The notes beneath the pieces are model-generated. The model was not told the DNA's origin. It saw only the letters and a program-made list of their open reading frames with translations, and searched no databases. Position numbers and translations under genes: made by a program. Below, piece by piece: positions 1 through 64,000 of a stretch of DNA of 64,000 nt (the stretch's first letter is position 1; each line of letters opens with the position of its first letter). The stretch is from Scenedesmus sp. PABB004. Taxonomy: Eukaryota. The stretch spans positions 2,914,001 to 2,978,000 of the forward strand of contig CM026547.1 of assembly GCA_014905635.1 (NCBI GenBank), written 5' to 3'.

Positions 1-1246
1 GCGCGCGGCCTGGCGGAAGAGGTCGCGCAGCGTCCACTGCGTCTCGGGGTCGCGGAACGACGCCACGCTCACAAAGATGCGCGGCGCCGCAGGGCCCCCG
101 GGCGGCGGCGCGCGGGGTGCGGGCAGCGGCGGCGCGGCCGCGAGCGGCAGTGCCGCGCCGCCGCGCTCGCCGCCCTCGCCGCCCTCGCCCGCCGCGCCCG
201 CGCCGCCGCCGGAGCCCGCGCCGCCGGCGGCGTAGAAGAAGGCGGTGATGGAGTAGCGGTGCCGGTGCGCGGGCAGCACCTCGTGCTGCAGGCCGGCCTC
301 AAACACGAGGACCCGCCCCGCCAGCGGCGCCACGAGCGTGGCGGGCTCGCCGCGCAGGTGCCCGAGCGGCTCGCCGCCGCCGCCGCTGTCGCCGTGCGTC
401 GCGTGGGCCGCGTTGTACAGCGCCAGCGCCCCGCCGTCGCGCTGCGGGTCCCAGCCGAGGTTGAGGTACAACAGCGCCGTCACGCTGCGCCCCGGCACCG
501 CGGCCGACGCGTCCGCGTGGCGCACGTAGCGCGCGCCGCCGCCGGGGTAGCACGCGACCTGCACGCTCACCCGCCCGCCCACGTCGTAGCTGCGGCGCGG
601 CGCGGCGCGTCGGCGGGCGCGGCGGGAGCGGCCGCCGGGCGCGGCCCGCGCGGCGCGCGGCCGCGCAGACCCACCCCTGCTGCTGCAGCTGCGACCGCAG
701 GCCGTCCAGCATCGCCACCGCCGCCGCCAGCAGCGGCGCGCCGCCCGCGGCGAGCTCGTCGGCGCTGGCCCAGCTCGCGACGTCGCCGCGCGCCGCGGCG
801 TCGGCCCAGCGCCCCCCGGCCGCCGCTGCGCCCATGCCCGGGCGCCGCCCCCGTGCCGCGAGCCAAGCCTCCGCCGCGGCCGCCACGGCCTGCGGCGCGC
901 GGCGGCGGCGGCGGCGTCTGAGCCGCGTGCGGCGGAGAGGAGCGGGCGCGCCGCCGGCAGCGAGCAGCGGTGCCCGACGTGCGCGCGCCTGCGCCTCGCC
1001 CTCCGACAGCGCGCCGTCCAGGACGCACGCCCGGGCGTCGCCCAGGAGCGGCAGCACGAGGCGCCGCCGGGCGATGGCCGTGGCCGCCGCCCCGGGCGGC
1101 ACCGCCGCGCCCGCGCTCGGCGCAGCGCCGCGCGGCGACCGCGGCGTCGCGGCGACGGCCGACGCCCCGTCGGCCGCCGCAGCGCTGACGATCTTGCGCT
1201 TGACGTTGTCGGGGAGCAGCGCCGCCAGCGCCGCGAGGTCGTCCAT
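1..1246 (-). CDS. 2OG-Fe(II) prolyl 4-hydroxylase (EGLN/PhyA-like) fused in frame to the N-terminus of a GT60 (Gnt1-like) GlcNAc-transferase; 3' end runs off the window
   Basis: ATG at 1246; probable introns 988-890 (GC-AG, in frame) and 674-590 (GT-AG). The last exon reads VQVACYPGGGARYVRHADAS...VTALLYLNLGWDPQRDGGAL...VAPLAGRVLVF...HEVLPAHRHRYSITAFFY (HxD...H...R), then a Gly/Ala/Pro linker and, same frame with no stop, RIFVSVASFRDPETQWTLRDLFRQAAR (GT60 N-terminal motif). Confidence 0.8.
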
Positions 1247-1335: not shown

Positions 1336-1993
1336 CAGCCACGAGGCGTGGGTCGCGGCGCAGAGCTAGGCGGCCGAGCGTGGGGCCCGACTTTTCTCCG
1401 CGCGCGCGCGACCCGCCGGCGGTTGCGGCGTGACGAGCGGCACAGCGGCGCCGCGCCGCCGCCGCCGTCCAGAGGCCTCGCCCGCCCGCGCGGAGCCCTC
1501 ATTTGTGTTCCTCCGCTGCGTCGACCGCGCCCGCCCTCGCGCCGCGACCGAGGGCAGCAGAAACGCCGAAACGCAGGCCAACGCGCCCCGCCCGGGCCAA
1601 TCCGGCGACGCCCAGCACGCGTTAGCGACTACCCCGGTCCCGACGCCGCCGCGGGCGCGCGCGCGCGCCCGGAGCAGCACCCGAGCGCTCGAGCGCGCGG
1701 CGCCGCCGCCGCCGGCGATGCGGGCATGAGGGCGCCCCGCGCCGCGGGCCAGGACACGCAGAGGTGGGCGGGGGCTCTGGGGGAGCAGCCAGCCCGCGCG
1801 GCCGCCGCCGCGGCGCGCGCCGAGCTGCAGCCAGCCCCGCGCCGGCGGCGCTGCCCCCCGCCGCCGGCGGCCGCGCCCCGGTCGCCGGCTGCCCGCGCGC
1901 GCGCGCCCCCAGCTCGCGCTCCGCGTCAGAAGCTCGGGTGCGTGCCGCGCCAGCTCACGCGCCGCGCGGCGGGGGGCCGCAGGTGCGGGCGCG

Positions 1994-4900
1994 ATGCCTC
2001 ACTTCATATGCAGGTGGCCGGGCGGCGACGTGCTGCTCGCGTCGGTGGAGAGCCGGCAGGAGCTGGACACCATCCTGCAGGTGCGCGCCCGGCGCGCGGC
2101 GCGGCGCGGCGCGGCGCGGCGCGGCGCGGCGCGGCGCGGCGGCCGGGCCAGGCTGGCGGCCGCGCGGCCGCGCGCCGCGTGCCGCAGCTCGGCGCGCGCC
2201 CGCCTGCGCTCACGCCGGCTCGCGCGCGCGCAGGAGCGCTGCGAGCCGGGCGTGTGCAAGGTCGCGCGCTACCACGGCCCGCTCGTGCTTGAGCTCAAGC
2301 CCCACGTGCCGGGCGTGTCCCAGGCTAGCGCGGAGCGCTTCACGCCGGCCCCCCCGAGCGCGCCGTTCGCGCCCGCCTGGGCCACGCGCGCCGCCGACGG
2401 CGACGTCGACCTGGTCGCCGCGGATGGCGCGCGCGAGCGCGTGCACCGCCTCGTGCTGCAGTGCCGCCTCCCGGGCCTGCGCGGCGAGCCGGTCGCGCCC
2501 GGTGTGCAGCAGGTGCGGCGCCGACGGGCGGGGGAGCTCGCCCCGCGCCCGGCGAGCCCCGCGCGGCCGCGCCTGCGGGCTCAGCGCCGCGCCGCCGCAC
2601 CGCGCGCGCGCCAGGTGCGGCTGGGCTGCGTGCCGGACGGGGGCGTGCTGCACTCCCTCGCGCACTACCTTTACCGGGACGAGCCCCCCGGCCCCGACGC
2701 GCTCACGCCCGCGCTGCACGGCGCGGCGCTCGGCGCCGGCCTGGCGCGCCTCGTGGAGCTCTGCGAGGCGCGCTTCGCGGCGGCGCTGGAGCTGCAGCTG
2801 CTGAGCTGGCAGGGTGCGTGCGCGCAGCCCGCGGGCGCGGGCGCGGGCACGGGCGGCCGCTGCGGGCGGGCGCGTGGTGCGCGGGCGCGACGCCGCCGCC
2901 GCTGCGCCGCAGGGCTGTGCGAGGCGCGGCGCTGCGTGGTGCTGGATAGCTTCATTGGCTGGACGGCGTACGCGGAGCAGCTGGGGCGCACGGAGCTGCG
3001 ACAGCTCTGTGTGCACGCGCTGGCGCGCCACGTCACCGCGGCGCAGGCCAGGTGCGGCGGGCGCGGCGGGGGCTGGCGGGCGCGTGCGCGCCCAAGGGCG
3101 GCGGCCCCGCGCGCCCCGCGCCCTGGCCGCTGACGCGCGCGTGCGCCCGCGCGCTCGCGGCGCCGCGCGCAGGCCGTCCTGGTCCAGCCTGGCGCCGGAC
3201 ACGGCGGCGCTGGTCGCGCTCGTCGCTGCCAGCACCGCGCCGCCGCTGATACACCGCCAGCTCGCGCACGACGGCTCCGCGGTGATCCCAGTGCCTGCCA
3301 ACCCCCCGCCGGGCGGCAGCGGCGGCGGGCCCGTGGTGAGCGTGGACGCCGAGGCCTTTGCGTCGGCGGGCGGGCGCATGACGAGCGCGGAGTGGCAGCA
3401 GCTCTCGTGCTTTCGCTCGGCGGTGCTGGGCAGCCTGCAGTCGCGCGACGCGAGCCCAATTGTGGTGGACCCGCAGCAGCTGGCGGGCAGCAGCCTCGGC
3501 GGCGGCGGCGCCGGCGCGGGCGCAAGGGGCGGGCAGGCGCAGGCGCACGCGCACGCGCAGGCGCCGGGCGCGCCGCACCTGTCGTTCAGCGTCAAGCAGC
3601 CGGTGCTGGGCCCGCACAAGCGCCTCATGGACAGCGTGTGCCGCTTCGCCTTCCCTGCGGTGCACACGCTGCTGGGCAACGGCTGGCAGCTCGGCGCGCC
3701 CGCGCCCGTGGGCGCGCACCCGGCGGCGCGGCAGGGGCGGGGGCTGCCCCTGCCGCCGACGCTGCCGGGGCGGCGGGCGCGGGCGCCGGCGGCGCGGCAG
3801 CCACCGTGGCGACGCCGTCGGCGGCCGGCGCGGCCGCTGGCGCTGCGGCCAGCGCGGCGGCGCTGGCGGCGGCGGCAGACGCGGCGGAGGCGGAGGCGCG
3901 GGCGGGGGCGGCCAGTGCTGCCCCCGCGAGCCTGCCGCTGCCCGTGCCCGTGCCGCCGCCCTGCCCGGCGGCGGGCGAGGCGCCAGAGGCGGGCGCGGGG
4001 CTGGCGGGCGAGAGCCCCGGGACGGCCGACGAGGAGGAGCCCAGCAGCTGCAGCACCCACGCCGCGCTGGCCGAGCAGGCCAGCGTGCGGGCGAGCAACA
4101 CCGGCGGCGGCCCCGTGGCCCCGCCGGCCGGCGGCGCGCTGCTGGGGCGCGTGCTGCGCGCGCGCGCGCCGAGCGGCCAGCCCAGCCCCGCGCGCCGTGG
4201 CATCGCGGCCGGCGCGACGCGGCTGCGGCAGTCCTGGGGCTCGGGCGCGTCGCTGGGCGCGGCCGCGCCCGAGGCGGTCGCGGCGCTGCGGCTGCTGCAC
4301 GAGGAGGAGCTGTCGGGCTCGTGGGGCTCGGGCGCGCTCAGCCGGCAGGCCAGCCTGCCGCCGCTGCAGCTTCCGGCCAGCGCGCTCGGCGGCGGCGGCA
4401 CGGGCGCGGGGCGGCAGCGCACGTCGCACGCGGAACACGACCCTAGCGCAGCGCAGCAGGGCAGGGGCTCTGAGGGGGGCGTCAGCAGCCAGCTGGGGGC
4501 GAACGGGAGTGTACAGATGCACTACACGGGACGCGGCGGCGGCGGCGCGGTGCTCGACCTGCCGGCCGCACGGCAGCCACCGCCGCCGCCGCCGGCCGCG
4601 GCCGAGGGCGAGCCCGGCGCCGGCGGCGGGCTGAGCGCGGGCGCGGCGCGCGAGGCGGCGCTGGCGGCGCTGCAGCGCGCGCTGGTGGAGGACTTTGTGC
4701 TGTATGAGGAGGCCAGCGCGGCGCGGCAGCACGTGGTGGGCATCCTGGTCGCCATCGAGCAGGGCGACGTGGCCGCCGGGCAGCGCCTGCTCGCGCCCGC
4801 GTGCGCGGAGCTCATCGCCGCCACCGCGCCCGCGGCGGTCCCCAACCGGCTCGCGCTCGCGGCGGCGCCGCCGCCGCCGCCGCCGGCGCGGGGGCCGAGG

Positions 4901-25246: not shown

Positions 25247-26672
25247 TCACACCGCCACCGCGCCGCGCAGCGGGGCCAGCGCGCCGCCCGGCAGCGCCGC
25301 GTAGCCGTGCTCGCCCCCGGCCCCCGCCGCCGCCGCGCGCCGCAACGCCGTCGCGGCGGCCGCGGCGCTGCCGAGCAGCGCGCCCGCGACCAGCGCCGCG
25401 AGCAGCGCCAGCGGCGGCAGCGCGGGCGCGTCCAGCACGTCGTCCATGAACGCCGCCGCCGCCCGCTCGCCGCCGCCGTCGCCGTGGCGGGCGAGCTTGG
25501 GGATGAGCACCGTGGTGCAGTCGGCGTTGGTCGGGCGCGCCGGCGCGCGCCGCCGGCGGGCGCGGCGCGGTGCGGGTGCGGGCCGTCCACGCAGTCGATG
25601 GGGCGGAGCTTCTTGTTGATGCACATCCAGATCTGACGGAGGGGGGGGGGATGAGGGGCGGCGCGGGGGCGGTCAGCGGCGGCCGCGTGCGGGGCGGCGC
25701 GTGCCGCTACGCGCCGCCGCCGCCGCGCACCTCGGCGAGCTCGCCGCGGTCGTCGCAGGTGACGTGGGGCATCACGCCGTACGCGTCCTCCACCGCGCCC
25801 TTGATGTGCTGCACCGCGTAGCGCCGTGTGTTGCTCGGCTCGATGCCCGCGTCGGCGAGCGCGTCCTGCAGGTTGAGCCGGCGGTGCAGGCGCAGCACGG
25901 CGTCGAAGAACGCGTGCTGCCCGCCGACGACGCGCTCTGCGCACGTGCCGTGCCGCGTCCACTCGTGGTTCCAGAAGCTCTCGTCGTCGCTCGACCAGCT
26001 CGGCCACACGCGCTCGAGCTCGGGCAGCAGGTCGTCGATGTCGCGCTCCTCCAGCGTGCTGTCAGGGTCGCAAAACTCGGGCCACGTGCCGTCGCGCCGC
26101 TGCGGCCAGAAGCCGTGCACCGTGAAGCGGTACCTGTGGCCGGGCGCGGCGGCAGCGCGGGCGGGCGGCGGGTCGGCACCGGCGCGCGCGGCAGTCGCGC
26201 GCGCGCGGCAGCGGCGCGCGCTGCGGCGCCGCCGGGGCATCTTTGCGCGGCGCCGCTGGCTGGGGGCGGGACCCGCGCCCCTGCGCCGCCCGGGCCGGCG
26301 CGGACGGGGCGGCGGCGCCCCAGCGCCGCGCGGCGTGGCCCAACCAATCTCTCACTTGTGCGGCGGGCGGTGCGTGCAGGTGTGCTCGTTGCAGAAGGTG
26401 GCGGGCCACTGCCTGCGACGGGGGCGGCGCGGGCGGGCTTGGGCGCCCGCGCGATGGCCAACCAACCACGCCGCTGCGTGCGAACGCGGCGGCGGCGCAT
26501 CCGCCGCTTCGGGCGGCCGCCCTCCCGCCCCTTTGCGCGGCCACCCCCCGCACCTGACGAGGTAGAAGTAGTCAAAGTCCGCCCGGCGCTCCAGGCCGTC
26601 CGCCGCAGCGGCGCAGGCCAGCCCCGCCGCCGCGAGCAGGGCCGCCAGCGCTGCTGCCGCGCGCCGCGCCAT
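25247..26672 (-). CDS. Ribonuclease T2 with signal peptide and C-terminal hydrophobic segment
   Basis: FDYFYLVRQWPATFC, CAS I FTVHGFWP, CAS II FWNHEWTRHGTCA, EIWMC; a frame break at ~25530-25590 precedes the C-terminal part. Confidence 0.9.
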
Positions 26673-42240: not shown

Positions 42241-45200
42241 ATGGACGCCGCGCGGCTCAAGCGCAAGCTGGGGCAGGCGGCGCCGCAGGTCAGCGCCGGC
42301 GCCGCGCAGCGAGCACGGGGCAGCGCCCCCAGACCCTTCCCACACTGCCCTCCGGTCCCGCCGCCCGGCAGGTGGTGGCGCCGCTGGCCATCGAGCGCGT
42401 GATCGGGCTGGCCGGCGGCGCGGGCGCGGGCGTCGTCGCGAGCAGCGCCGCGCACCCGGGGCTGCTCGCGTGGCCGGCGGGCGCCTTCGTGGTCCTGTCG
42501 AGCGCGGCCGGCCGGCACCAGAACGCGCTGCTCCGCTCAACCAGCAGCAACGCGCCGCTCGCCTGCATCGACTGGGCGCCCGACGGCGAGCACATCGCGG
42601 CGGGCGAGGACGGGGGCGGCGGCGGCGGCGGCGGCGCGGGCGTGCTCGTGTGGAGCGTCGCGAGCCGCCAGTGCCTGCAGGAGCTGCGCGCGCACAAGCA
42701 CGCGGTCGCGTGCGTGCGCTTCTCGCCCGACGGTGCGCGGCGCGCGCGGGGCGCGCGGGGCGCGCGGGGCGTCCGGCACCGCCGCCGGTGCTCTCCTCGC
42801 CCGCCCCCATCCCACACCCCCGCGCTGCTGCGTGACGCGGGCGCAGGCAAGCTGCTCGTGTCAGCTGGCGCGGCGGGCGACGGCCAGCTCTGCATCTGGT
42901 GAGCTCGGCCGTCGCGGCAGGGCGGGGCTGCAGCGCGCGCAGCGGCTGTGGGCGCCCCCGGCTGCAGCGGCGGGCCGACGCCGCGCGCACGCGCCGGCCG
43001 CCGCCGGCCGCAGGGACTGGCGGACGGGCGGCCTGCTGTGGCGGCAGGCGGTGTCGTCGTCGCTCCGCAGCGCCGCGTTCACGGAGGACAGCAGCTGCGT
43101 GCTCGCAGTCGGGCGCAACACGTTCAAGGCCTGGTCGCTGAGCTGGAACGCGCAGCAGGCGGGGCGCTTCAAGGGCGGCGGCGGCGGCGCCGCCGGCAAC
43201 GTGAGCCTCACGCCGCGGCCGGTGACGCTCAAGGAGCTCCGCACGGCCGCGTTTGTGGACCTCTGCATCGCGCCGGGCCCGCCGGGGCAGCCGGCGGGCG
43301 TCAATGGCGTCTACGCGCTCGTGGCGCGCGGCGTGCTCGTGCTCATGCGCCCCACGGGCCGCGTCATCGACAAGAGCGTCAACCTGCAGGTGCCCGCCGC
43401 GTTCAGCCTGGCCGCGTGCCCCGGCCAAGTGGCCGCGGCGTGCGCACAGGGCGTCGTGCGGCTCTTTGCCAGCAAGACGCTCGCGTTCCGCGCCACGCTG
43501 CCGCGCTTTGTCGCACGCGGGCAGCAGCAGCAGCCGGGCGGCGGCGACGCCTTCCCCGACGCGCGCGCGTGCAGCTTCAGCGGCGAGGGCGGCGCGCAGC
43601 TCGTGGTGGCGTACGCGGACCAGCTCGTCGTAGTCTGGGACGTCGCAGACGCGGCCAAGGTGGGTGGCCCCGCTGCGGCCGCGCGGCGCCGGCCTCCCGG
43701 CCGGGCAGAACCCGCGGCGGCGCGGAGCCCCGCGCGGCGCCCATCCGCCGGCGCCGAGCCCGTCCACGCCGCCCCGCAGATCGCGTGCGTCTTCAGCCTG
43801 TCGGCGCACGCCGGCTGCGTGTGGGGCGTGCAGCCCGTCGGCGCGCCCGCGCTGGGCGCCGGCGCGCCGCAGCCGGGCGCGCCGCGCTTCGCCACGTGCG
43901 CGGCGGACGGGACGGTCAGGTTTTGGCACCTCGCCGCTGACGCGGGGCCAGGCACCGGGCGCGTGCTGACGGGTGCGGCCTTGCCTCGTGGCTGCCGCTG
44001 GCGGCGCGCCCGCGCTTGCCCGCCGCCGCCGGCTCACCCTGCGCCGCGCCGCCCGCCGCCGCGCGCGTCGCGGCGCAGTGCCGGGCAAGCCGGGCGTGGT
44101 GCTGCGCTGCGTGCGCCTCAGCCCCGACGCGCGCCACGTGCTCGCGGGCGACCTGGACGGCCGGCTGTACGTGTGGGACGCGGTCGGCCTGAGGCTGGTC
44201 GCCGAGCAGCAGGCCCACGACGGCGAGCTGCTCTGCCTCGACTGCGCCCCCGCGGGGCCCGGCCGCGCCGGCGGCGGCCTCGCCGCGTCGGGCGGGCGCG
44301 ACGGCCTGGTGCACGTGTACGCCGCGGAGCGCGGCTATGAGCTGCTCGACACGCTGGACGGCCACCGCGGCGGCGTGACGGGCCTGGCCTTCACCGCGGG
44401 CGGCGGCGGCCTGGTCAGCTGCGGCGGCGACGGCGCGATCATCTTCCGCGCCCTGCACGCCGGCGGCGGCGGGTTGTCCGCGGCCGCGTACGCCATGCAC
44501 GCGGTGCCGTCCAGCCTGCTGTACGGCCTCGCGCTCGACCCGCTGGAAGAGTACGTGTGGACCACCGGCTCGGACGGCGCGCTGCGGGCGTGGGAGGTCG
44601 CGAGCGGCGCGCTCGCGCGCACGCTTGCGCCCGAGGCGGGCGCGGGCGAGCCCACGTCGCTCGCCACCGACCCCGGCGGCGTGCTGCTCATCGCCTGCCA
44701 CGCCGACGGCTGCCTGCGCATCTACCGCGCGGCCACGGGGCAGCTGCTCGCGCGCGGCTGGGGCCACTCGACGCTCGTCGCCGGCGCGGCCGTCACGCCC
44801 GACCTCGCGCGCGTCGTGTCGGTCGGCGGCGACGGCTGCGTCATCGTGTGGCGCCTGCCGGAGCCGCTGGTGGCGGAGATCGCGGCCGCCGTCGCGCGCG
44901 TGGCTGCATTAAAGGCGCAGCGCGCGGAGCCGGCCACCCCCGGCGGCGGCGGCGCGTGGGGCGCGAGCACGCCCGCGCGCGGGTCGCCGGGCCCGCCGCA
45001 GGCCACGCCCAGCCCCGAGGCGCCCAGCAGCGAGGGGCTGGGCTCTACGCTGCGGCGCATTCGCCAGCACAAGACGCTCGTGTCGGCCGACAAGCTGCCC
45101 AAGTGGGCGCGCTCGCCCGGCTCGCCGAGCGCGAGCCCGCTCAGCCCCGGCAGCGCCGGCGCCAGCGGCGCCAGTGGCAGCACGGGCGAGCCCAAGCCCC

Positions 45201-48200
45201 TGCTTGGCCGTTGGCTGGGCGGCCGCGCCGCGGCGGCCAAGGGCAAGTGGGTCGTGGAGCCGGAGCTCGCGCTCGCCTGCGACGCCGCCGCGCGGCGGCT
45301 CAGCAGTGAGAGCGCGGCCACGCCGCCGGCCGGCGACGGCGGCGGTGGCGGCGACGGCAGGCACGCGGCCGGGGACGAGGCGCCGTCGGGCGGCAGCGGC
45401 GCCGCGGGCGGCGCGACGGCGGTGCAGGCGACGTGGGGCGAGTGGCCGGAGGAGGAGGAGGACATGGTGGTGATTCAGGACTGGGACGACAGCGCGCCCG
45501 CCGCGTACGGCACGCACGAGGGCAGCGGCGACGCGGGCGCGGCGGCGGCGCCCGCGGACGACGACGAGCTGGACCGCCAGACGCCCAGCCCGCTGCCCGG
45601 CGCCGAGGGTGGGCTGGCTCTCGGCGACCCGCGGCTGGGCCTCGCTGGCGTCGCGCGCCCACGCGTGCACGCGCGCGCTCACGCGCTGCCTGCCCGCCCT
45701 GCTGCGCCGCAGGCGCCGCCGTGGTCCGCGACCTCTTCAGGGACCACTTCAGCAGCCTGGGCAGCGGTGTGGCACCCCTGCGCGGCGGCCGGCACGCCGA
45801 GCACCGGCAGAGCCTGTCGTCGCTGTGAGCGTCGCCGCGCCCGCGCCGCCGGGCCGGCTGTTGTGGACGGCGGCGCAGCGCTGCGGCGGCCGCCGCCCGC
45901 GCCTGACGCCGCCGCGCACCCCGTCGCCCCAGGTTCAAGGCCCGCACCAGCCTCGCTGGTGCCCTGCCTGGCGGGCAGGCGCCTGGTGGCGGCGGCGGCA
46001 TCCTGGCAGCGCTGGACAGCCCGGCCGCGCCAATGGGCGACGCCGGCGGCGAGCTGGCGGGGACGCCGGCCGCTGCGTCCGCGGCGCCGGGGCCGGAGGG
46101 CGGCGACGGCGCGCCGCTGGGCGTAGCAGCGGCGCAGCACAAGCGCTGCAGGCGCGGCGAGGCAGACGGCGAGCCGGCGTCGGCAGCCAAGCCTGCAGCG
46201 GCGGCGGCGGCGCGGAGCCGGCAGGTGTGGCGGTCAGCCGGGCAGGTGCTGCCACGCGGCGCGCCGCGCGCGGGCGCCCCCGCCAGCGCTCAGGCGGGCG
46301 GCGGCTCGGCGCTCGGCGCGACTGCGGCGCGCCAGCCGGAGCCGGCGAGGCCGACGCCGGCGGCCGCCGGCAGCGCTGCCGGGCAGCGCCCCGCCAGCAG
46401 GGGCGGCAGCCTGCCCGGCTCGCACACGGCGTCGCGGGCTGCGTCGCGCACCGCCTCGCGCAGCACGTCATGCGTGGAATCCCGGGCGTCCTCGCGCGCC
46501 TCCTCGCGCGACGGCGAGGCGCCGACGCCGGGCAGCGTGCTGGCGCGGCTCCTGCAGGAGAGCCCCGAGGCCTCGCCCGCGCCGGCGCCCGCGTCCGCCG
46601 AGGCGCAGCCGGGCTGCGGCGCGTCGCCGCGCGCGCGCCTCGCCGCCGCGCTGGACGCCGCCGCGGCGTCGCCCGGCAGCCCCGCCGACGGCGGCGCCTC
46701 GCCGGGGCCGGCAGCCAAGCCGCCCAAGCCGCACGCGCTCGGCGAGAGCGTCACGCGCGTGAGCATCGGCGCCTGCGTTGCGGCGGCGTCGGGAGGCGCG
46801 GCTGCGGCGCCCGCTCCGCAGTCGAGCAGCCCAGCCGGCCAGGCCTCGCTCACGCTGCAGGCGCCGCGCTCGGCGGCCTGCACGGCTGCTGACAGGCCAG
46901 GGCCGGATGCCGTGCAGGCGCGCGGCAGCGACAGCGCTGCCAGCCCGCTCGAGGGCGCGGCGCGCGACGGCCCGCTCGCGAGCGCGGCGGCGCGCACGGG
47001 CGCGAGCACCACGCCGCACGGCCAGCACCTGGTGTGGCCAGGCTGGGGAGAGGCGGGCGCGTGGGAGGACGGCACGCCCAGCCCCGGCTCGGCCGCGCTC
47101 GCGCAGATGTGCGGCGGCTCTGCCGGCGGCGGCGGCGGCCCTGCGGCGGGTGGCGGCGATGCTTTCTGGCTCAAGGCCAACCCCTGCTTCGACATGACGC
47201 CTGCGGGCAGCACGCCCGGCAGCGCGCTGCCCAGCTGCAACGGCGCCGCGCCCGGCGTGCTGCCGGTGCGCGGCTGGCTGCGCGCACGCTGCGCGCCACG
47301 CGCGCTGCGGCGCCGCCCTCACCGCCGCCGCCCGCCCTGGCGCCGCAGTTTGAGGCGGGCCGCATGCTGCCCCCGGCGGCCGTGTCGCCGGAGCTGGAGC
47401 CGCCGCCGGTGGAGGAGCAGCAGCCGGAGCAGGCGCCGGCGGACCACGCGCCGGCGGAGCAGGCGCCGGCGGACCACGCGCCGGCGGAGCAGCAGCCGGC
47501 GGAGCAGCCGCCGGCGGAGCAGCCGTCGGCGGAGCAGCCAGCGCTGCAGGCAACGCCGGCCAAGGCGGCGCCGACCGAGCAGGCGGTGGCGCCGGGGCCG
47601 GGCTCGGGGGCGGGCAGCTTCTCGGCCGGCACCCCCGACAGCCGCGTGCTCTCGCCCCCCTTCTCCTCGGGTGCTGCGTCGCCCGCCAGCGGCAGCGCCC
47701 GGGCGCGCCGCGCGCTGGCGCGGCGGGAGAAGGCCGCCGCCAAGGCCGCGGCGCGCGCGTCGCCGGGTGGCGGCGGGGCCGACGAGCCCGCCAGCCCCGG
47801 CGGCTCCATGCTGAGCCTGCTGAGGCGCATCAAGAGCACCATGCCGGGCATCGCCAAGGCCCGCAGCAGCGTGTCGTGCGCCGGCGGCCTGCCCGCCACG
47901 CACTCCCCCGTCAAGGGCGGCGGCCCGCTCGCCGGCCTCGCCGGCCCGCGCAGCGCCGACGGCGGCACGCCCGCGGCGACGAGCCCGGCCGCGCCGTGCG
48001 CGGCCGCGCCGGGCGGGCAGGAGCCGTGGGCGCGCGGCGCCGAGCGGCGCGAGCGGCGGCAGGCGGGGCTGTCGGCGGACGAGGTGCGCCTCGAGCTCAC
48101 GGCGCGCGCCGAGCCGGCGCCGCCCGAGCCGGGCGCGCCGGCGCCGCCCGCCAGGGCCGGCCCCAGCAGCAGTGGCGGCGGCAGCGCCGACGCGGCGGTC

Positions 48201-53662: not shown

Positions 53663-56600
53663 ATGTCGGCCCAGGCCTACAGCACGCTCTCGTCGGCCGG
53701 CAAGCGCCGGCTGCACGCGCACGATGACATCGACCGCACCGTCTACGCGTTCGGCCAGACGCTGGCCTCCATCGTCAACGACCCCCGCACCGCCGGGCAG
53801 GCGGCGGGCGGGTGGTGGGGCATGGGCGGCGAGCCCGCGGCGCCGCCGCCGCCGCCGCTCGACCCCGCCCGCTACCCGCCCGTCGCACGGGCCGACGTGG
53901 CGCGCTACGTAGAGCTCGTGCACGGCGCCTACGAGCGCTTCGTGCGCGATCGGGCCAGCCTCGAGGCCTTCGGCGCCGCGCACGGCGGCGACGGCGCGGG
54001 TGCGCGACGGTTGGCCGCTGCTGCGGCCCAGCCGCTGACGCGCTGCCCGCCCTCACCCAACCTCACCCGCGCGCCGCCGCTCAACCCGGCGCAGACGGCG
54101 GCACGCGGCACGGCGGCGCGGGAGAGGGCGAGCCGCTGCTGGCGGCGGCGCAGGCGGTGCCGGCGCCGTTTTTCGAGGAGGGGTTCTTCGACGACTGGTG
54201 AGGGGGGCGCGGGCTGCCCCCCTCCCACCCTGTGGCGGTGGCACGGCCCGCACGCAGCAGCCCCCGGGCTGCAGCCGCCCCGGGGACGCGGCGGCGGTCG
54301 CCGAGCGCCGCGCGCGCCGCGCCGCGCCCTGCGCGCGCGCAGGGACGACTTTTTCCGGCAGTACTGCCGTGAGCAGTCGGCGGAGGAGCTGTACGAGCAG
54401 ATCGACACGCTCAACAGGCACCTGGTGCGGCGCGTGCGCCCGTGCCCACGCGCACCGCTGGCCCGGGCCCGGGCCGGGGCCTGCCATGGCGGCGCTGCCG
54501 ACGTGCCGCGCCGCGCCGCGCCGCGCCGCGCCGCGCCGCGCGGCAGGACGTGGTGGAGCTGCAGCTGCTGCGCGAGGTCGCGAGCCGGTCGGACTCGTTC
54601 TTCCAGGCCGCGGCGAGCCTGCAGCACCTGCTGGGCATGCTGCGCGACAGCCAGGCCGGCATCCGCGCGCTGCGCGCCACGCTCGCGGCGGCGGACGAGG
54701 CAATGTACAGCAGCGCGGTCTCGGTGCAGGCGCTGCAGCGGCGGCGCGGCAACCTGCAGGCCACGCTCGACATCACAAAGGCGCGCGCCAATGCGCGCGC
54801 GGCGGCCGCCCCCGCCGCACGCCGCGCGCGGCGCGCCCCCCAAACGCGCGCGCGCGCCCGCCGGCGGCTCACGCGCGCGCCCCGGGCGCGGCGCCTGCAG
54901 GGCCTGGAGGAGGTGCTGGCGGCGCAGGCGGCGCTCGAGTGCCTGCTGGAGGGCCAGGACTATGCGGGCGCGCTGGAGCTGCTGGAGCAGATCCGGGCGC
55001 TGCTGGAGGCGCCCGGCCTGCGCGGGCTGCAGTGCGTGCGCCACCTGCCGCCGCGCCTGGTCGACACCATCGCCGCGGCCGAGGCCGCGCTCGCCGCGGA
55101 GTTCCTGGCGACGCTGGCCAACGGCGAGCTGCCGCGCGTCGTCGCGGGCGCGGCGGCGGACGCCGAGGCGCACCCCGGTGCGCGGGGGCTCGCTGGCTTG
55201 CTGCGCGGCGCGGGCAGCGGCGGCGGCGGCAAAAGGCAGCAGCGGAGGCTCTGCGCTCATGCGGTCGCACCCGCACCCGCACCGCACCCGCCGCCGCAGA
55301 CGCCGGCATCTCCGCCAGCGGCAAGGAGCCGCCCGGCACGCCGTGGCGCCTGCCGCAGCCGGGGCGCGCCGGCGGTGCCGGCTGCGGCGACGCGGAGGCG
55401 GAGGCGCTGGGCGAGAAGCTGCTGCCGCTGGCGGTCGGGCTCTACCGCAGCGAGCGCCTCGCGGCCACGCTCCAGCGCCACCAGGCGGGCGTGGGCGATG
55501 AGGTCAAGGCCGGCGTGCGCGACGCGGTGCAGGCGGTGCTGCCGCTGCTGCTCGCGGCGAGCGGCGCCGACGCGGCGCCGCAGCCGGACAGGCACGAGGC
55601 GCAGCTGTCGGACCAGCTCGCGGTGAGCGCCGCCGCGGGCGGCGCCGCCCCGGGCGCGCGCCGGCGCCCGCGCCGCCCGCGCCGCCCCGCCGGCACGCTC
55701 AGCGCCGCGCCCACGCCTGCGCGCCTGCGTGCTGCCCGCGCAGCTGCTGCACCACGGCGCGTTCATGGTGCAGCTCCACGCCGCGGCGCGCGTCATCACG
55801 TCATGCATTGACCACGCGGCGCTCGTCGCGCAGCTGCTGGAGGCCACGCTCGCCGGCGTCAGCGCGCCGGCGAGGTGCGGGCCGCACGGGCGCGCGCGGG
55901 ACGCTCGCCGCGGGTGCCTGCCGCCCCCCCCGCCGCCCGCCCACGGCCCCGCGCCCGCCGCCGCGCAGCCAGCTGGCGTCGCTGCGCAAGGAGTGCGCGG
56001 CTGTGCTGCAGGCGGTGGTGGACGTCGGCCTGGACCGCTGGGTGAAGCTGCTGGGCGCGCGCGGCGCGGCGCACACGCGGCTCAAGCAGTACGAGCTGCG
56101 CCAGCTGCTCGACCTCAGCGAACAGGTGAGCGCCGCCGCGCAAGGGGGCAGGGCCGGGGCCCCGGCCGGGGGTGGGGCCCGCCCGTCCCCCGCCCGCCCG
56201 CGGCGGCCCGCCCGCAGCGGCCCGCCCCGCGCTCACCCCGCTCACCCCGCGCCGCGCCGCACTGCAGGTGGCCGCGTACGCCGAGGCCGCGGGCGCGCGC
56301 ACGCCGGGGTCCTTCCGCGCCGCGCTGCAGGCGCAGTGCAAGGCGCTGCTGGACGCGACGCACGCGCGCAGCATGAACCAGCTGCAGCACTTGCTTGAGA
56401 GCGAGCAGTGGGTCGCGGTGGAGGTGCCAGGCAGCTTCCAGGGCATGGTGGACCGCCTGGTGGCGCGCTGCGGCGAGGGCGCGGCGCGGCTCGAGCCGCC
56501 GCCGCCGCCCGGCGGCCGCGCGAGCCCGCGCGGCTCGGCCGACGGCGGTGCGGGCAGCCCGGGCGCGGGCCGGCGCGGCTCAGCCGACGGCGGCGGCGGC

Positions 56601-58895
56601 GCCGAGGCGCACGCGCCGACGCTGGTGGTGTGCGGCAAGGCGTTCCACCTGGTCAACTCTGGGCTGATGGTGCTGAAGATGCTGGACGAGTACATGCGCC
56701 TGTATGAGCTGATGCCCCAGTTTGGTGCGGAGCTGGTGCACCGCCAGCTGGAGCTGCTGCGCCTCTTCAACGGCACGACCGCGGCGCTCGTGCTCGGCGC
56801 GGGCGCGATGCGCACCGCGGGCCTGCGCTCGATCAGCGCGAAGCAGCTCGCGCTCAGCTGCCAGGCGGTCGCGATGCTGAGCACGCTGCTGCCGCTGCTG
56901 CGCGCGGGGAGCCTGTCGCTCGTGAGCCAGCCGCGGCGCGCGCTGCTCATGCCCGAGTTTGACCGCCTGCTCGCCGACCTCACCACGCACGCGGACGAGG
57001 TGCACAGCAAGCTCGTGGACATCATGCGCGACCGCATGGCCGCCGCCGCGGCGGCGCTGCCGGGCGAGGCGCGCGCCGCGGCCGCCGCGTCGGCGGGCGG
57101 CGCGCCGCCGGCGCCCGCGCCCACGGTCGCGCTGCTCGCGCGGCAGCTGGGCACGCTGCGCGGCGTGCTCGTGCCGTACCTGCAGCGCGAGGAGGTGGAG
57201 TTCATCTTTGGCGCCGTCGCGCGCGCCTACAGCGACGCGCTCGCGGAGCTCTTTGAGCGCCTGCTCCAGTCCGACCCCGACACAGAGGCCGTCGTCGCCG
57301 CGAGCGCGCTCGCCATGCTGCAGGTGCGCGCGCGGTGGCGGCCGCGGCGGACGACGCCGCCAGCGGGCAGCCGCACGGGGCGCAGGCGCAGGCGCGCGCG
57401 CGCCGCGGCGCTGCGCCTCACGCGCCCGCGCGCGCCGCCGCCGCAGGCGTTCCGGGAGCTCCCGCTCGACCCGGCGCGCGCGAGCAACTACTGCAGCCGG
57501 CTGTCGACCACCTACACCAAGCACTTTGGCCTGCCGCCCTGGGACCAGGAGCGGCTGCAGGGCCAGCGGGCGGCGCAGGAGCCTCCGGCGCAGCTGCAGC
57601 CGCGGGCAGACGAGGAGCCGCCGTCGGCGCAGCAGCCGCAGCCGCCGGAGCAGCCGCTGCGGCAGCCGGAGCAGCAGCAGCCGGAGCAGCAGCAGCAGCC
57701 AGAGCAGCAGCAGCAGCAGCTGGAGCAGCAGCAGCCCCTCCGGGAGCAGCAGCCCCTCCGGGAGCAGCAGCCGGAGCAGCCGCCCAGCAGCCAAGGCCCG
57801 AAGCCAGGCCGCACCAGCGACACTGAGGCAGCGGGCCTGTCTGTCGAGGTTGTGGAGCCGGGCAGCACCGGCCCGCCGCAGCAGTCGCACGGGCACGCGG
57901 CGGCGGAGCAGCAGCCCGGTGTGGAGCAGCCGGCGGCAGTCGAGCAGCAGCCGCAGCAGTCGGACCAGCGGCCGGAGCAGGAGCTGTCGCAGCCGCAGCA
58001 GCCGCAGCAGCCGCAGCAGCGGCAGCAGCCTGGGCCACTGGTGGAGCTGCCGCAGGAGCTGCAGGATGAGCAGCCGCTCAGCAGCCTGGCGCCGTCCGCG
58101 GGCGAGGCCTGGGACGCAGCGGCCGGCAGCGGCAGCTGGGGCGGCGGCGCTGCCGCCGCTGCCGGCAGCGAGCAGCAGCCGCTGGACGGCGCCGCTGGGC
58201 CGCAGCATCAGCCGGCAGCGCCGGACGCGCCCAGCGACGACGGCGGCAGCGTCGGTGGCCCGCCCTCGGCAGCAGCGGGCGACCTCGTCGTCGCAGCCGC
58301 CGAGCAGCCAGGCGAGCAGTCAGCCGGCGAGTCAGCGCCAGGGCCGCTGTCGGCAGAGCCGCAGCGGGCGACCGCAGCCACCGACCAGGCGGCGCCCGCG
58401 CCGGCGCAGGCGCCAGCGGCGGAGGGCGCTGGCGAGCTGGCGGACCTGCTCGGCGGCTGGGGCGAGCCGGCGGCCAGCGACGGCGCTGAGCCGGCAGGCG
58501 GCGGCAGCGGCGCGCTGGAGTGGCTGCAGCAGGAGGCCGAGCAGTCGGCGCCGGCGACCAGCGCCAGCGGCGGCGGGGCGCTGCTGGACGGGCTGTGGGA
58601 CGGCGCCCCCGCGCAGGAGCGCCCCGGCGGCAGCGCCGCGAGCGAGGCCGCGCAGCAGCAGCTGCAGCAGCAGCCGCAGGCGCAGGCAGCGGACGACGGG
58701 CTTGGGCTGCTGGAGGACGTGTCGCTGCTGGACGGCGAGCCCGGCGCCGCCGAGGCGCCGGCCAAGGCGCCGGGCGGCGGCACCAACGCCAACGGCCTGC
58801 CGGTGAGGGGCAGCAGCTTCGACCCCCTCGACGCCACCAGCGCGCCGCCGCCGCCGGCCGCGGTCGAGCGCGACGCCGCGGACGACCTGCTGTGA
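53663..58895 (+). CDS. VPS54: GARP complex subunit VPS54 with a long Gln/acidic C-terminal extension, ~10 exons
   Basis: GQTLASIVNDPR, LDVVELQLLREVASRSDSFFQA, LESEQWV, FHLVNSGLMVLKML, FNGTTAALVLGAGAMRTAGLRSISAKQLALSCQ, EVHSKLVDIMRDR; GC donor at 54781. Confidence 0.92.

Positions 58896-60367: not shown

Positions 60368-64000
<3,633 letters not shown>

Follow-up and report, generated by a model that had tools for sequence, protein, structure and literature searches.

Described PhyA and Gnt1 enzymes and the Scenedesmus locus

In Dictyostelium (PhyA and Gnt1) and in Toxoplasma (PHYa and GNT1), a proline of the protein Skp1 is hydroxylated and the product is then glycosylated by two separate proteins. 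In Pythium ultimum, a bifunctional PhyA/Gnt1, reportedly described by van der Wel, Gas-Pascual & West (2019, Glycobiology), is said to carry a Skp1-type prolyl 4-hydroxylase and then Gnt1 in one polypeptide. The analysis presented here concerns a stretch of 64,000 nucleotides from the green alga Scenedesmus sp. PABB004 (contig CM026547.1, positions 2,914,001 to 2,978,000 of the forward strand; the window). At its left edge, on the minus strand, lies a gene encoding a prolyl hydroxylase domain of the PHD/EGLN type, a linker and the start of a GT60 glycosyltransferase. Its product is expected to catalyse the hydroxylation and then the glycosylation, and the gene is very probably a member of the phyA-gnt1 family.

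As far as the excerpted text of this and the other papers cited here goes, the table of Florimond et al. (2019) gives the label 'phyA-gnt1' to Pythium, Stylonychia, Ectocarpus, Guillardia, Rhizoclosmatium, Naegleria, Emiliania, Symbiodinium and Volvox carteri (PMC6437050). The Volvox carteri entry, XP_002955656.1 (VOLCADRAFT_96541), is assigned to Chlorophyta and falls in group A1 with proven Skp1 hydroxylases; animal PHDs emerge inside the PhyA clade (PMC6437050). Green-algal genomes (Chlamydomonas) were stated in 2012 to have Skp1-modification-like genes (PMC3515798), and enzyme pairs of the pathway are often fused in various protist taxa (PMC8724618). The Pythium PHD-type enzyme hydroxylates Skp1, the three characterised members (Dictyostelium, Toxoplasma and Pythium) all act on Skp1, and the fold of Dictyostelium PhyA (DdPhyA) is peculiar in ending without a C-terminal helix (PMC7864055). 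The phyA-gnt1 fusion is already catalogued in chlorophytes, in Volvox, and the gene in the window is an expected further case, nothing new in kind. Full-text literature searches on Skp1 glycosylation in green algae returned passing mentions and no experimental green-alga study.

The closest of these systems is the Volvox carteri protein XP_002955656.1 (P0021 in our set), which resembles the window protein in domain order, in an N-terminal LLPD.V.R.I and in a C-terminal WGLGT...GGL..AF. The two proteins share 59% identity in the GT60 domain (241 amino acids) and 36% in the hydroxylase half. In the published Volvox model, the final strand of the hydroxylase and the IFVS..YRDPE with which the GT60 domain opens are both absent, whereas the junction in the window gene is intact. 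A Trp/Leu-rich stretch replaces the missing parts at the Volvox junction and looks like a mis-called intron. The Pythium ultimum PhyA/Gnt1 is likewise listed as a one-chain phyA-gnt1, but its host is an oomycete and not a green alga (PMC6437050). It apparently lacks the chlorophyte N-terminal motif, as judged from the consensus of the diverse clade. DdPhyA, in turn, shares with the window hydroxylase the PHD fold, the HxD...H triad and the end at the last beta strand.

Animal enzymes provide two further comparisons. EGLN1-3/PHD1-3 are the best match to the hydroxylase in sequence (E 1.9e-15, to EGLN1/2, the best solved sequence match of the core) and in fold, with identical catalytic residues. 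They differ in their target, HIF-alpha, in having a C-terminal helix and in the absence of a glycosyltransferase fusion. To our knowledge, HIF is not known in green algae. PLOD/LH3 follows the same logic, with a 2-oxoglutarate (2OG) hydroxylase and a transferase that glycosylates its product in one chain; this is an analogy, not a homology demonstrated here, and PLOD/LH3 differs in its families (PF03171 and GT_PLOD), in the reverse order of the domains, in its lysine target and in its location in the lumen of the endoplasmic reticulum. The PLOD type was the next-nearest cluster type in a feature search of the ESM Atlas (scores of 0.87-0.89), which is a lead only.

Gene structure and the two catalytic domains

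The gene was traced with P0002, a gene model for the same locus, whose residue numbers are used throughout; the coordinates of its parts are given in Table 1. By tblastn, residues 1-192 of P0002 aligned to 1246..671 with 99.5% identity, and the remainder to 589..1. An AG acceptor at 591/590 sets the start of exon 2 at 589 on the minus strand. The start codon, ATG at 1246-1244, opens MDDLAALAALLPDNVKRKIV and is supported because in six homologues, too, the conserved N-terminal motif lies only a few residues from the start. In addition to the start codon and this motif (LLPDNVKRKIV), exon 1 encodes a stretch of low complexity as well as the N-terminal, helical half of the PHD-type domain. The minus-strand frame is free of stop codons from 1365 to 1 (455 codons). 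A preliminary description of this DNA had taken the exon from 589 to base 1 as one stop-free frame; both the boundary and the frame were correct, and all the motifs it quoted are present in the translation of 591..1.

Table 1. Features of the window, with positions counted from its first nucleotide and residue numbers following P0002
Feature	Position	Strand	Evidence and remarks
N-terminal motif L-x-x-L-P-D-x-x-K/R-x-x-I	1181-1225	-	P0002 residues 8-22; helix LLPDNVKRKIV
Exon 1	675..1246	-	P0002 residues 1-190 and two bases of Gly191; tblastn and sequence
In-frame Arg/Ala/Pro-rich stretch of 99 nucleotides	890..988	-	P0002 residues 87-119; starts GC, ends CGCCGCAG
Intron, 85 nucleotides	590..674	-	GTGGGT...CGCCGCAG; GT-AG, phase 2; gap between P0002 tblastn blocks
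Exon 2, in-window part	1..589	-	P0002 residues 191/192-387; continues past left edge
PHD/EGLN-type double-stranded beta-helix core	232..564	-	P0002 residues 200-310; Pfam PF13640
Gly/Ala/Pro-rich linker, 50 residues (311-360)	82..231	-	Translation; predicted disordered
Start of GT60/PF11397 domain, first 27 residues (RIFVSVASFRDPETQWTLRDLFRQAAR)	1..81	-	Pfam; about 320 further residues past window edge
RNase T2	25710-26351	-	E 1e-40
WD40 beta-propeller protein	43970-46123	+	One of the window's ordinary eukaryotic genes
Vps54-like protein	56130-58892	+	E 4e-37
MIT + AAA ATPase	61161-62633	-	One of the window's ordinary eukaryotic genes

The window has a guanine plus cytosine (GC) content of 75-83%, and from base composition the probability of 196 codons without a stop is 0.28. 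There are 149 stop-free frames of at least 250 amino acids in the window, with long open frames in all six frames, and the strand opposite the gene is also open at 1..921. As chance open frames are frequent in DNA of about 80% GC, openness alone is worthless as evidence of coding, and homology decides. The in-window translation of exon 2 was 100% identical to P0002 and 47% identical to P0003, a transcript-derived protein of the chlorophyte Flechtneria rotunda. The GC content of exon 2 at the first, second and third codon positions was 0.82, 0.62 and 0.97, respectively. Throughout the window, a GC content above 0.9 at the third position (GC3) together with one below 0.72 at the second (GC2) marked real genes far better than lists of open reading frames did.

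The whole PHD-type domain spans residues ~60 to 310 of P0002. Pfam analysis of the translation of 591..1 identified 2OG-FeII_Oxy_3 (PF13640; E 2.5e-17, with 64 bits where the cut-off is 27) along the whole profile (positions 1-98 of 98), and the full P0002 model matched the same family at E 3.5e-16. Alignment to EGLN1/2 places the Fe(II) ligands at His215 and Asp217 (RHAD) and at His293 (HEV), with Arg302 (RYSIT) as the 2OG-binding residue. These four columns are invariant in alignments of 9 and 13 homologous sequences. AlphaFold modelled the domain with a per-residue confidence score (pLDDT) of 85-94, and Foldseek matched the model to PHD2 (E 3e-12, template modelling score about 0.7). In the model, the hydroxylase fold stops at the last beta strand (302-310), without a C-terminal helix.

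The linker contains neither a methionine nor a stop codon, and connects the final hydroxylase beta strand directly with the strand that opens the transferase. AlphaFold gave residues 315-356 a pLDDT of 27-33 and no secondary structure, and the length of the linker differs between homologues. Its codon-position GC (0.96/0.86/0.94) carries no coding signal, while GC3 is 0.96-0.99 on either side. In the window, the last 25 residues matched Pfam PF11397 (GlcNAc) at 22.1 bits, against a curated cut-off of 21, over profile positions 2-26 of 352. Beyond the left edge, P0002 has a full PF11397 match (194 bits, E 5.2e-57), and the GT60 domain occupies its residues 361-705, with a pLDDT mostly above 90 in the AlphaFold model. 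The D-x-H motif is the metal/nucleotide-sugar motif of GT60 enzymes. In P0002 it is DAH at residues 457-459, within VLQVDAHMRF; homologues have DSH at the equivalent position, and 83 of the 102 fused relatives carry a Q[VIL]D[SAT]H motif.

The abundance of chance open frames, and a low-complexity linker with no codon-position signal, raise the question of whether two adjoining genes, or a dead gene, have been read through owing to the rarity of stops in DNA of 80% GC. We regard such an artefact as extremely improbable. The frame has no stop behind the hydroxylase and no methionine ahead of the transferase, and the 150 nucleotides of linker are too short for a terminator and a promoter. Every catalytic residue is kept, the third-position signal is strong on both sides of the linker, and the fusion is conserved across green-algal classes and stramenopiles, including in a transcript-derived sequence.

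Kyte-Doolittle means over 19 residues were below 0.8 throughout the first 60 residues, and no hydrophobic N-terminal segment was found. As no hydrophobic stretch precedes the domains, the protein should be cytoplasmic, unlike the GT60 enzymes of the Golgi. The preliminary description had placed a complete EGLN/PHD-type core and a transferase start in one open reading frame without a signal peptide, and had left it to the sequence past the edge to show whether a full GT60 domain with a DxH motif follows. The core is borne out by the full-profile PF13640 match and the catalytic residues, the single exon with its uninterrupted linker by the gene structure, the lack of a signal peptide by the hydropathy profile, and the full GT60 domain with its DxH motif by gene model P0002. 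A sequence search with the GT60 fragment of Volvox africanus (P0016) found no solved GT60 structure at E up to 1. In the Foldseek search with the whole model, PHD entries alone were among the matches listed, and the search is uninformative on the GT60 fold.

Relatives, phylogeny and the gene model

Word-index searches identified the same fusion in Volvox africanus, V. carteri, Pleodorina starrii, Chlamydomonas incerta, C. eustigma, Chlorella sp. A99, Hariotina reticulata and Flechtneria rotunda, the last from a transcriptome, in which the open reading frame of the transcript carries both the hydroxylase and the GT60 domain. The fusion that the preliminary description had noted in this one green alga is found in numerous chlorophytes, in one case in a sequence derived from a transcript. 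Outside the green algae, these searches found it in the brown alga Pylaiella littoralis and in a chrysophyte. They gave no Dictyostelium, Toxoplasma or Pythium sequence among the named relatives, and direct orthology to the characterised enzymes thus rests on the published table, as excerpted (PMC6437050). Two relatives carry the JGI name '[Skp1-protein]-hydroxyproline N-acetylglucosaminyltransferase'. In the ESM Atlas, a cluster of 50 members had PF11397 in 100% and PF13640 in 98%, and its commonest phylum was Chlorophyta.

A HMMER search with a 13-sequence profile was run against 1.84 billion representatives; 13,618 hits had an E value of 0.001 or less, and 2,577 one of 1e-30 or less. When 164 gathered proteins were parsed with two domain hidden Markov models, the hydroxylase preceded the GT60 domain in 98, with a further 4 in which the hydroxylase match was split in two and 1 in which two GT60 domains followed. 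The reverse order, with the GT60 domain before the hydroxylase, was seen in 5 of the 164. Two to four GT60 domains alone were present in 35, a single GT60 domain alone in 18, and a hydroxylase alone in 3. The top scorers, P0026-P0036 (metagenome, 1088-2461 amino acids), were considered as orthologues and dropped on account of their tandem GT60 copies and reverse order. These presumably bacterial proteins have several tandem GT60 domains and often an AhpC/TSA-like module, and some have a C-terminal prolyl-hydroxylase domain.

A tree of 89 fused proteins was calculated with FastTree from the hmmalign match columns of the two domains, without bootstrap. It took in no Dictyostelium, Toxoplasma or Pythium sequence, and only the close grouping with the Volvocales was used. 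The window protein grouped with Chlamydomonas incerta, Pleodorina and Volvox, including the V. carteri protein XP_002955656.1. C. eustigma and a JGI protein bearing the Skp1-hydroxyproline transferase name adjoined that group. The gene is most probably the orthologue of the Volvox carteri phyA-gnt1 gene.

Comparison with the relatives also points to two doubtful parts of P0002. The in-frame stretch of 99 nucleotides in exon 1 is missing in all 7 homologues that span the site, and also in Volvox carteri P0021, and its deletion gives a perfectly collinear join with the homologues. GC3 in this stretch is 0.79, against 0.94-0.99 in the flanking coding sequence, and the AlphaFold pLDDT is below 50 at residues 83-111. 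Probably, the gene model retains a GC-AG intron here; a lineage-specific insertion is less likely.

The second doubtful part lies past the window edge. P0002 has 1098 amino acids, and from about residue 740 to its end it comprises long predicted helices followed by an alpha/beta-hydrolase (BD-FAE/Abhydrolase_3, with a GQSAGG serine motif), matched by PF20434 (E 8e-22) and PF07859 (E 2.2e-15) over residues 813-1048. In blastp comparisons, none of the 202 other gathered proteins shared this tail. Eight homologues extend to the C-terminus, and six of them end no more than a few residues from the conserved GGL..AF. C. incerta is the other homologue that runs past it, into unrelated sequence, and the junction at residues 708-740 of P0002 has a pLDDT below 50 in the AlphaFold model. 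The tail is probably an adjoining gene merged into the model. The length of P0002 and its two significant hydrolase matches would also fit a model that is correct throughout: the protein would then be a fusion of three parts, with the hydrolase tethering Skp1 modification or coupling it to an esterase. This could hold alongside action on Skp1; we consider it very unlikely, given the absence of the tail from the other proteins, the homologues that end near GGL..AF, the unrelated continuation in C. incerta, the poorly modelled junction, and the fact that the tail is known from a gene model whose DNA for this part lies outside the window. The P0002 model thus probably needs two corrections, for a retained intron of 99 nucleotides and for a merged downstream hydrolase gene.

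Probable function, neighbouring genes and significance

The function of the gene is most likely hydroxylation of a Skp1 proline followed by addition of N-acetylglucosamine (GlcNAc), an assignment made by orthology. Considered as a whole, the reading of the product as a soluble cytoplasmic protein of the 'phyA-gnt1' kind, with two enzymes in one chain acting on Skp1, appears likely. The steps are modelled on the characterised enzymes of Dictyostelium, Toxoplasma and Pythium, as set out in the excerpted papers (PMC8724618, PMC7864055, PMC6437050, PMC11570480). The hydroxylase domain would carry out the O2-dependent hydroxylation of a single conserved proline in free Skp1, close to the C-terminus, and the GT60 domain would transfer an alpha-GlcNAc from UDP-GlcNAc onto the hydroxyproline. 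The glycan would then be lengthened by further cytoplasmic transferases. Modification of Skp1 would alter its F-box partners, and the output of SCF ubiquitin ligases would thereby track the oxygen supply. With the two steps fused, the hydroxylated product may be passed straight to the transferase.

Several observations weigh against this assignment. The ~320 GT60 residues past the edge are known from gene model P0002 and not from DNA, and P0002 is itself probably wrong in at least one place, the retained 99-nucleotide stretch, and doubtful in its C-terminal hydrolase tail. With the hydroxylase core as the query, the DdPhyA structure 6T8M was absent among 42 PDB matches at E up to 1, and by sequence the core is closer to animal EGLN1/2 than to the other solved prolyl hydroxylases. 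This closeness is unsurprising, because in the published tree, as excerpted, animal PHDs arise within the PhyA clade (PMC6437050). The hydroxylase and GT60 domains are also combined in presumably bacterial proteins, in which Skp1 cannot be the target, and the restriction of PhyA to Skp1 is less firmly established than that of Gnt1 in the excerpted text (PMC11570480).

The last two points bear on whether the same chemistry operates in chlorophytes on a cytoplasmic protein other than Skp1, or on Skp1 and others. Skp1 as the substrate in this alga is pure inference, the targets of the presumably bacterial hydroxylase/GT60 proteins are not Skp1, and the N-terminal motif of the chlorophyte clade (12 of the 102 fused proteins) could mean a clade-specific partner. 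Against this, the window protein groups with a sequence placed among proven Skp1 hydroxylases (PMC6437050), each of the three characterised members acts on Skp1 (PMC7864055), and in the bacterial forms the domains stand in the opposite order and are accompanied by extra modules. A different or additional substrate therefore seems unlikely, and action on Skp1 is preferred. Among nine frames scanned within the window, there were no genes of the Skp1 pathway.

All 12 of the fused proteins with the N-terminal motif belong to the clade of the tree that contains every named green alga. The sequence around the motif cannot be aligned, and the consensus of the diverse clade lacks it. In the window protein, low-complexity residues 24-48 follow the N-terminal helix. 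The pattern LPDxxKxxI resembles the start of the F-box consensus. An F-box identity was rejected, since none of six N-termini matched any F-box family in Pfam at E up to 10. It seems quite unlikely, though conceivable, that the N-terminal helix mimics the first F-box helix and docks the enzyme on free Skp1. If true, docking would present the flexible C-terminal proline of Skp1 to the two active sites in turn, a mode of substrate capture with no described precedent among PhyA or Gnt1 enzymes.

Two perfect GC-only microsatellites lie near the gene: (GCGGGCGGC) x5.8 at 1277-1328, about 30 nucleotides upstream of the start codon, and (GCGCG) x9.6 at 2094-2141, in the divergent upstream region. A divergent upstream frame at 1730-3133 was considered as a BTB-domain protein, and was rejected as it had no Pfam match. 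None of the RNase T2, WD40, Vps54-like and MIT + AAA ATPase genes (Table 1) is linked to Skp1.

Hydroxylation and glycosylation of Skp1 is a protist oxygen-sensing route, the counterpart of HIF hydroxylation in animals. Green algae make their own oxygen, and the literature searches found no experiment on the Skp1 route in them. The Scenedesmus gene is a clean example, with both domains and the whole junction in one exon, where the published Volvox model is broken. The locus could act as a template for mending chlorophyte gene models and for cloning the algal enzyme.

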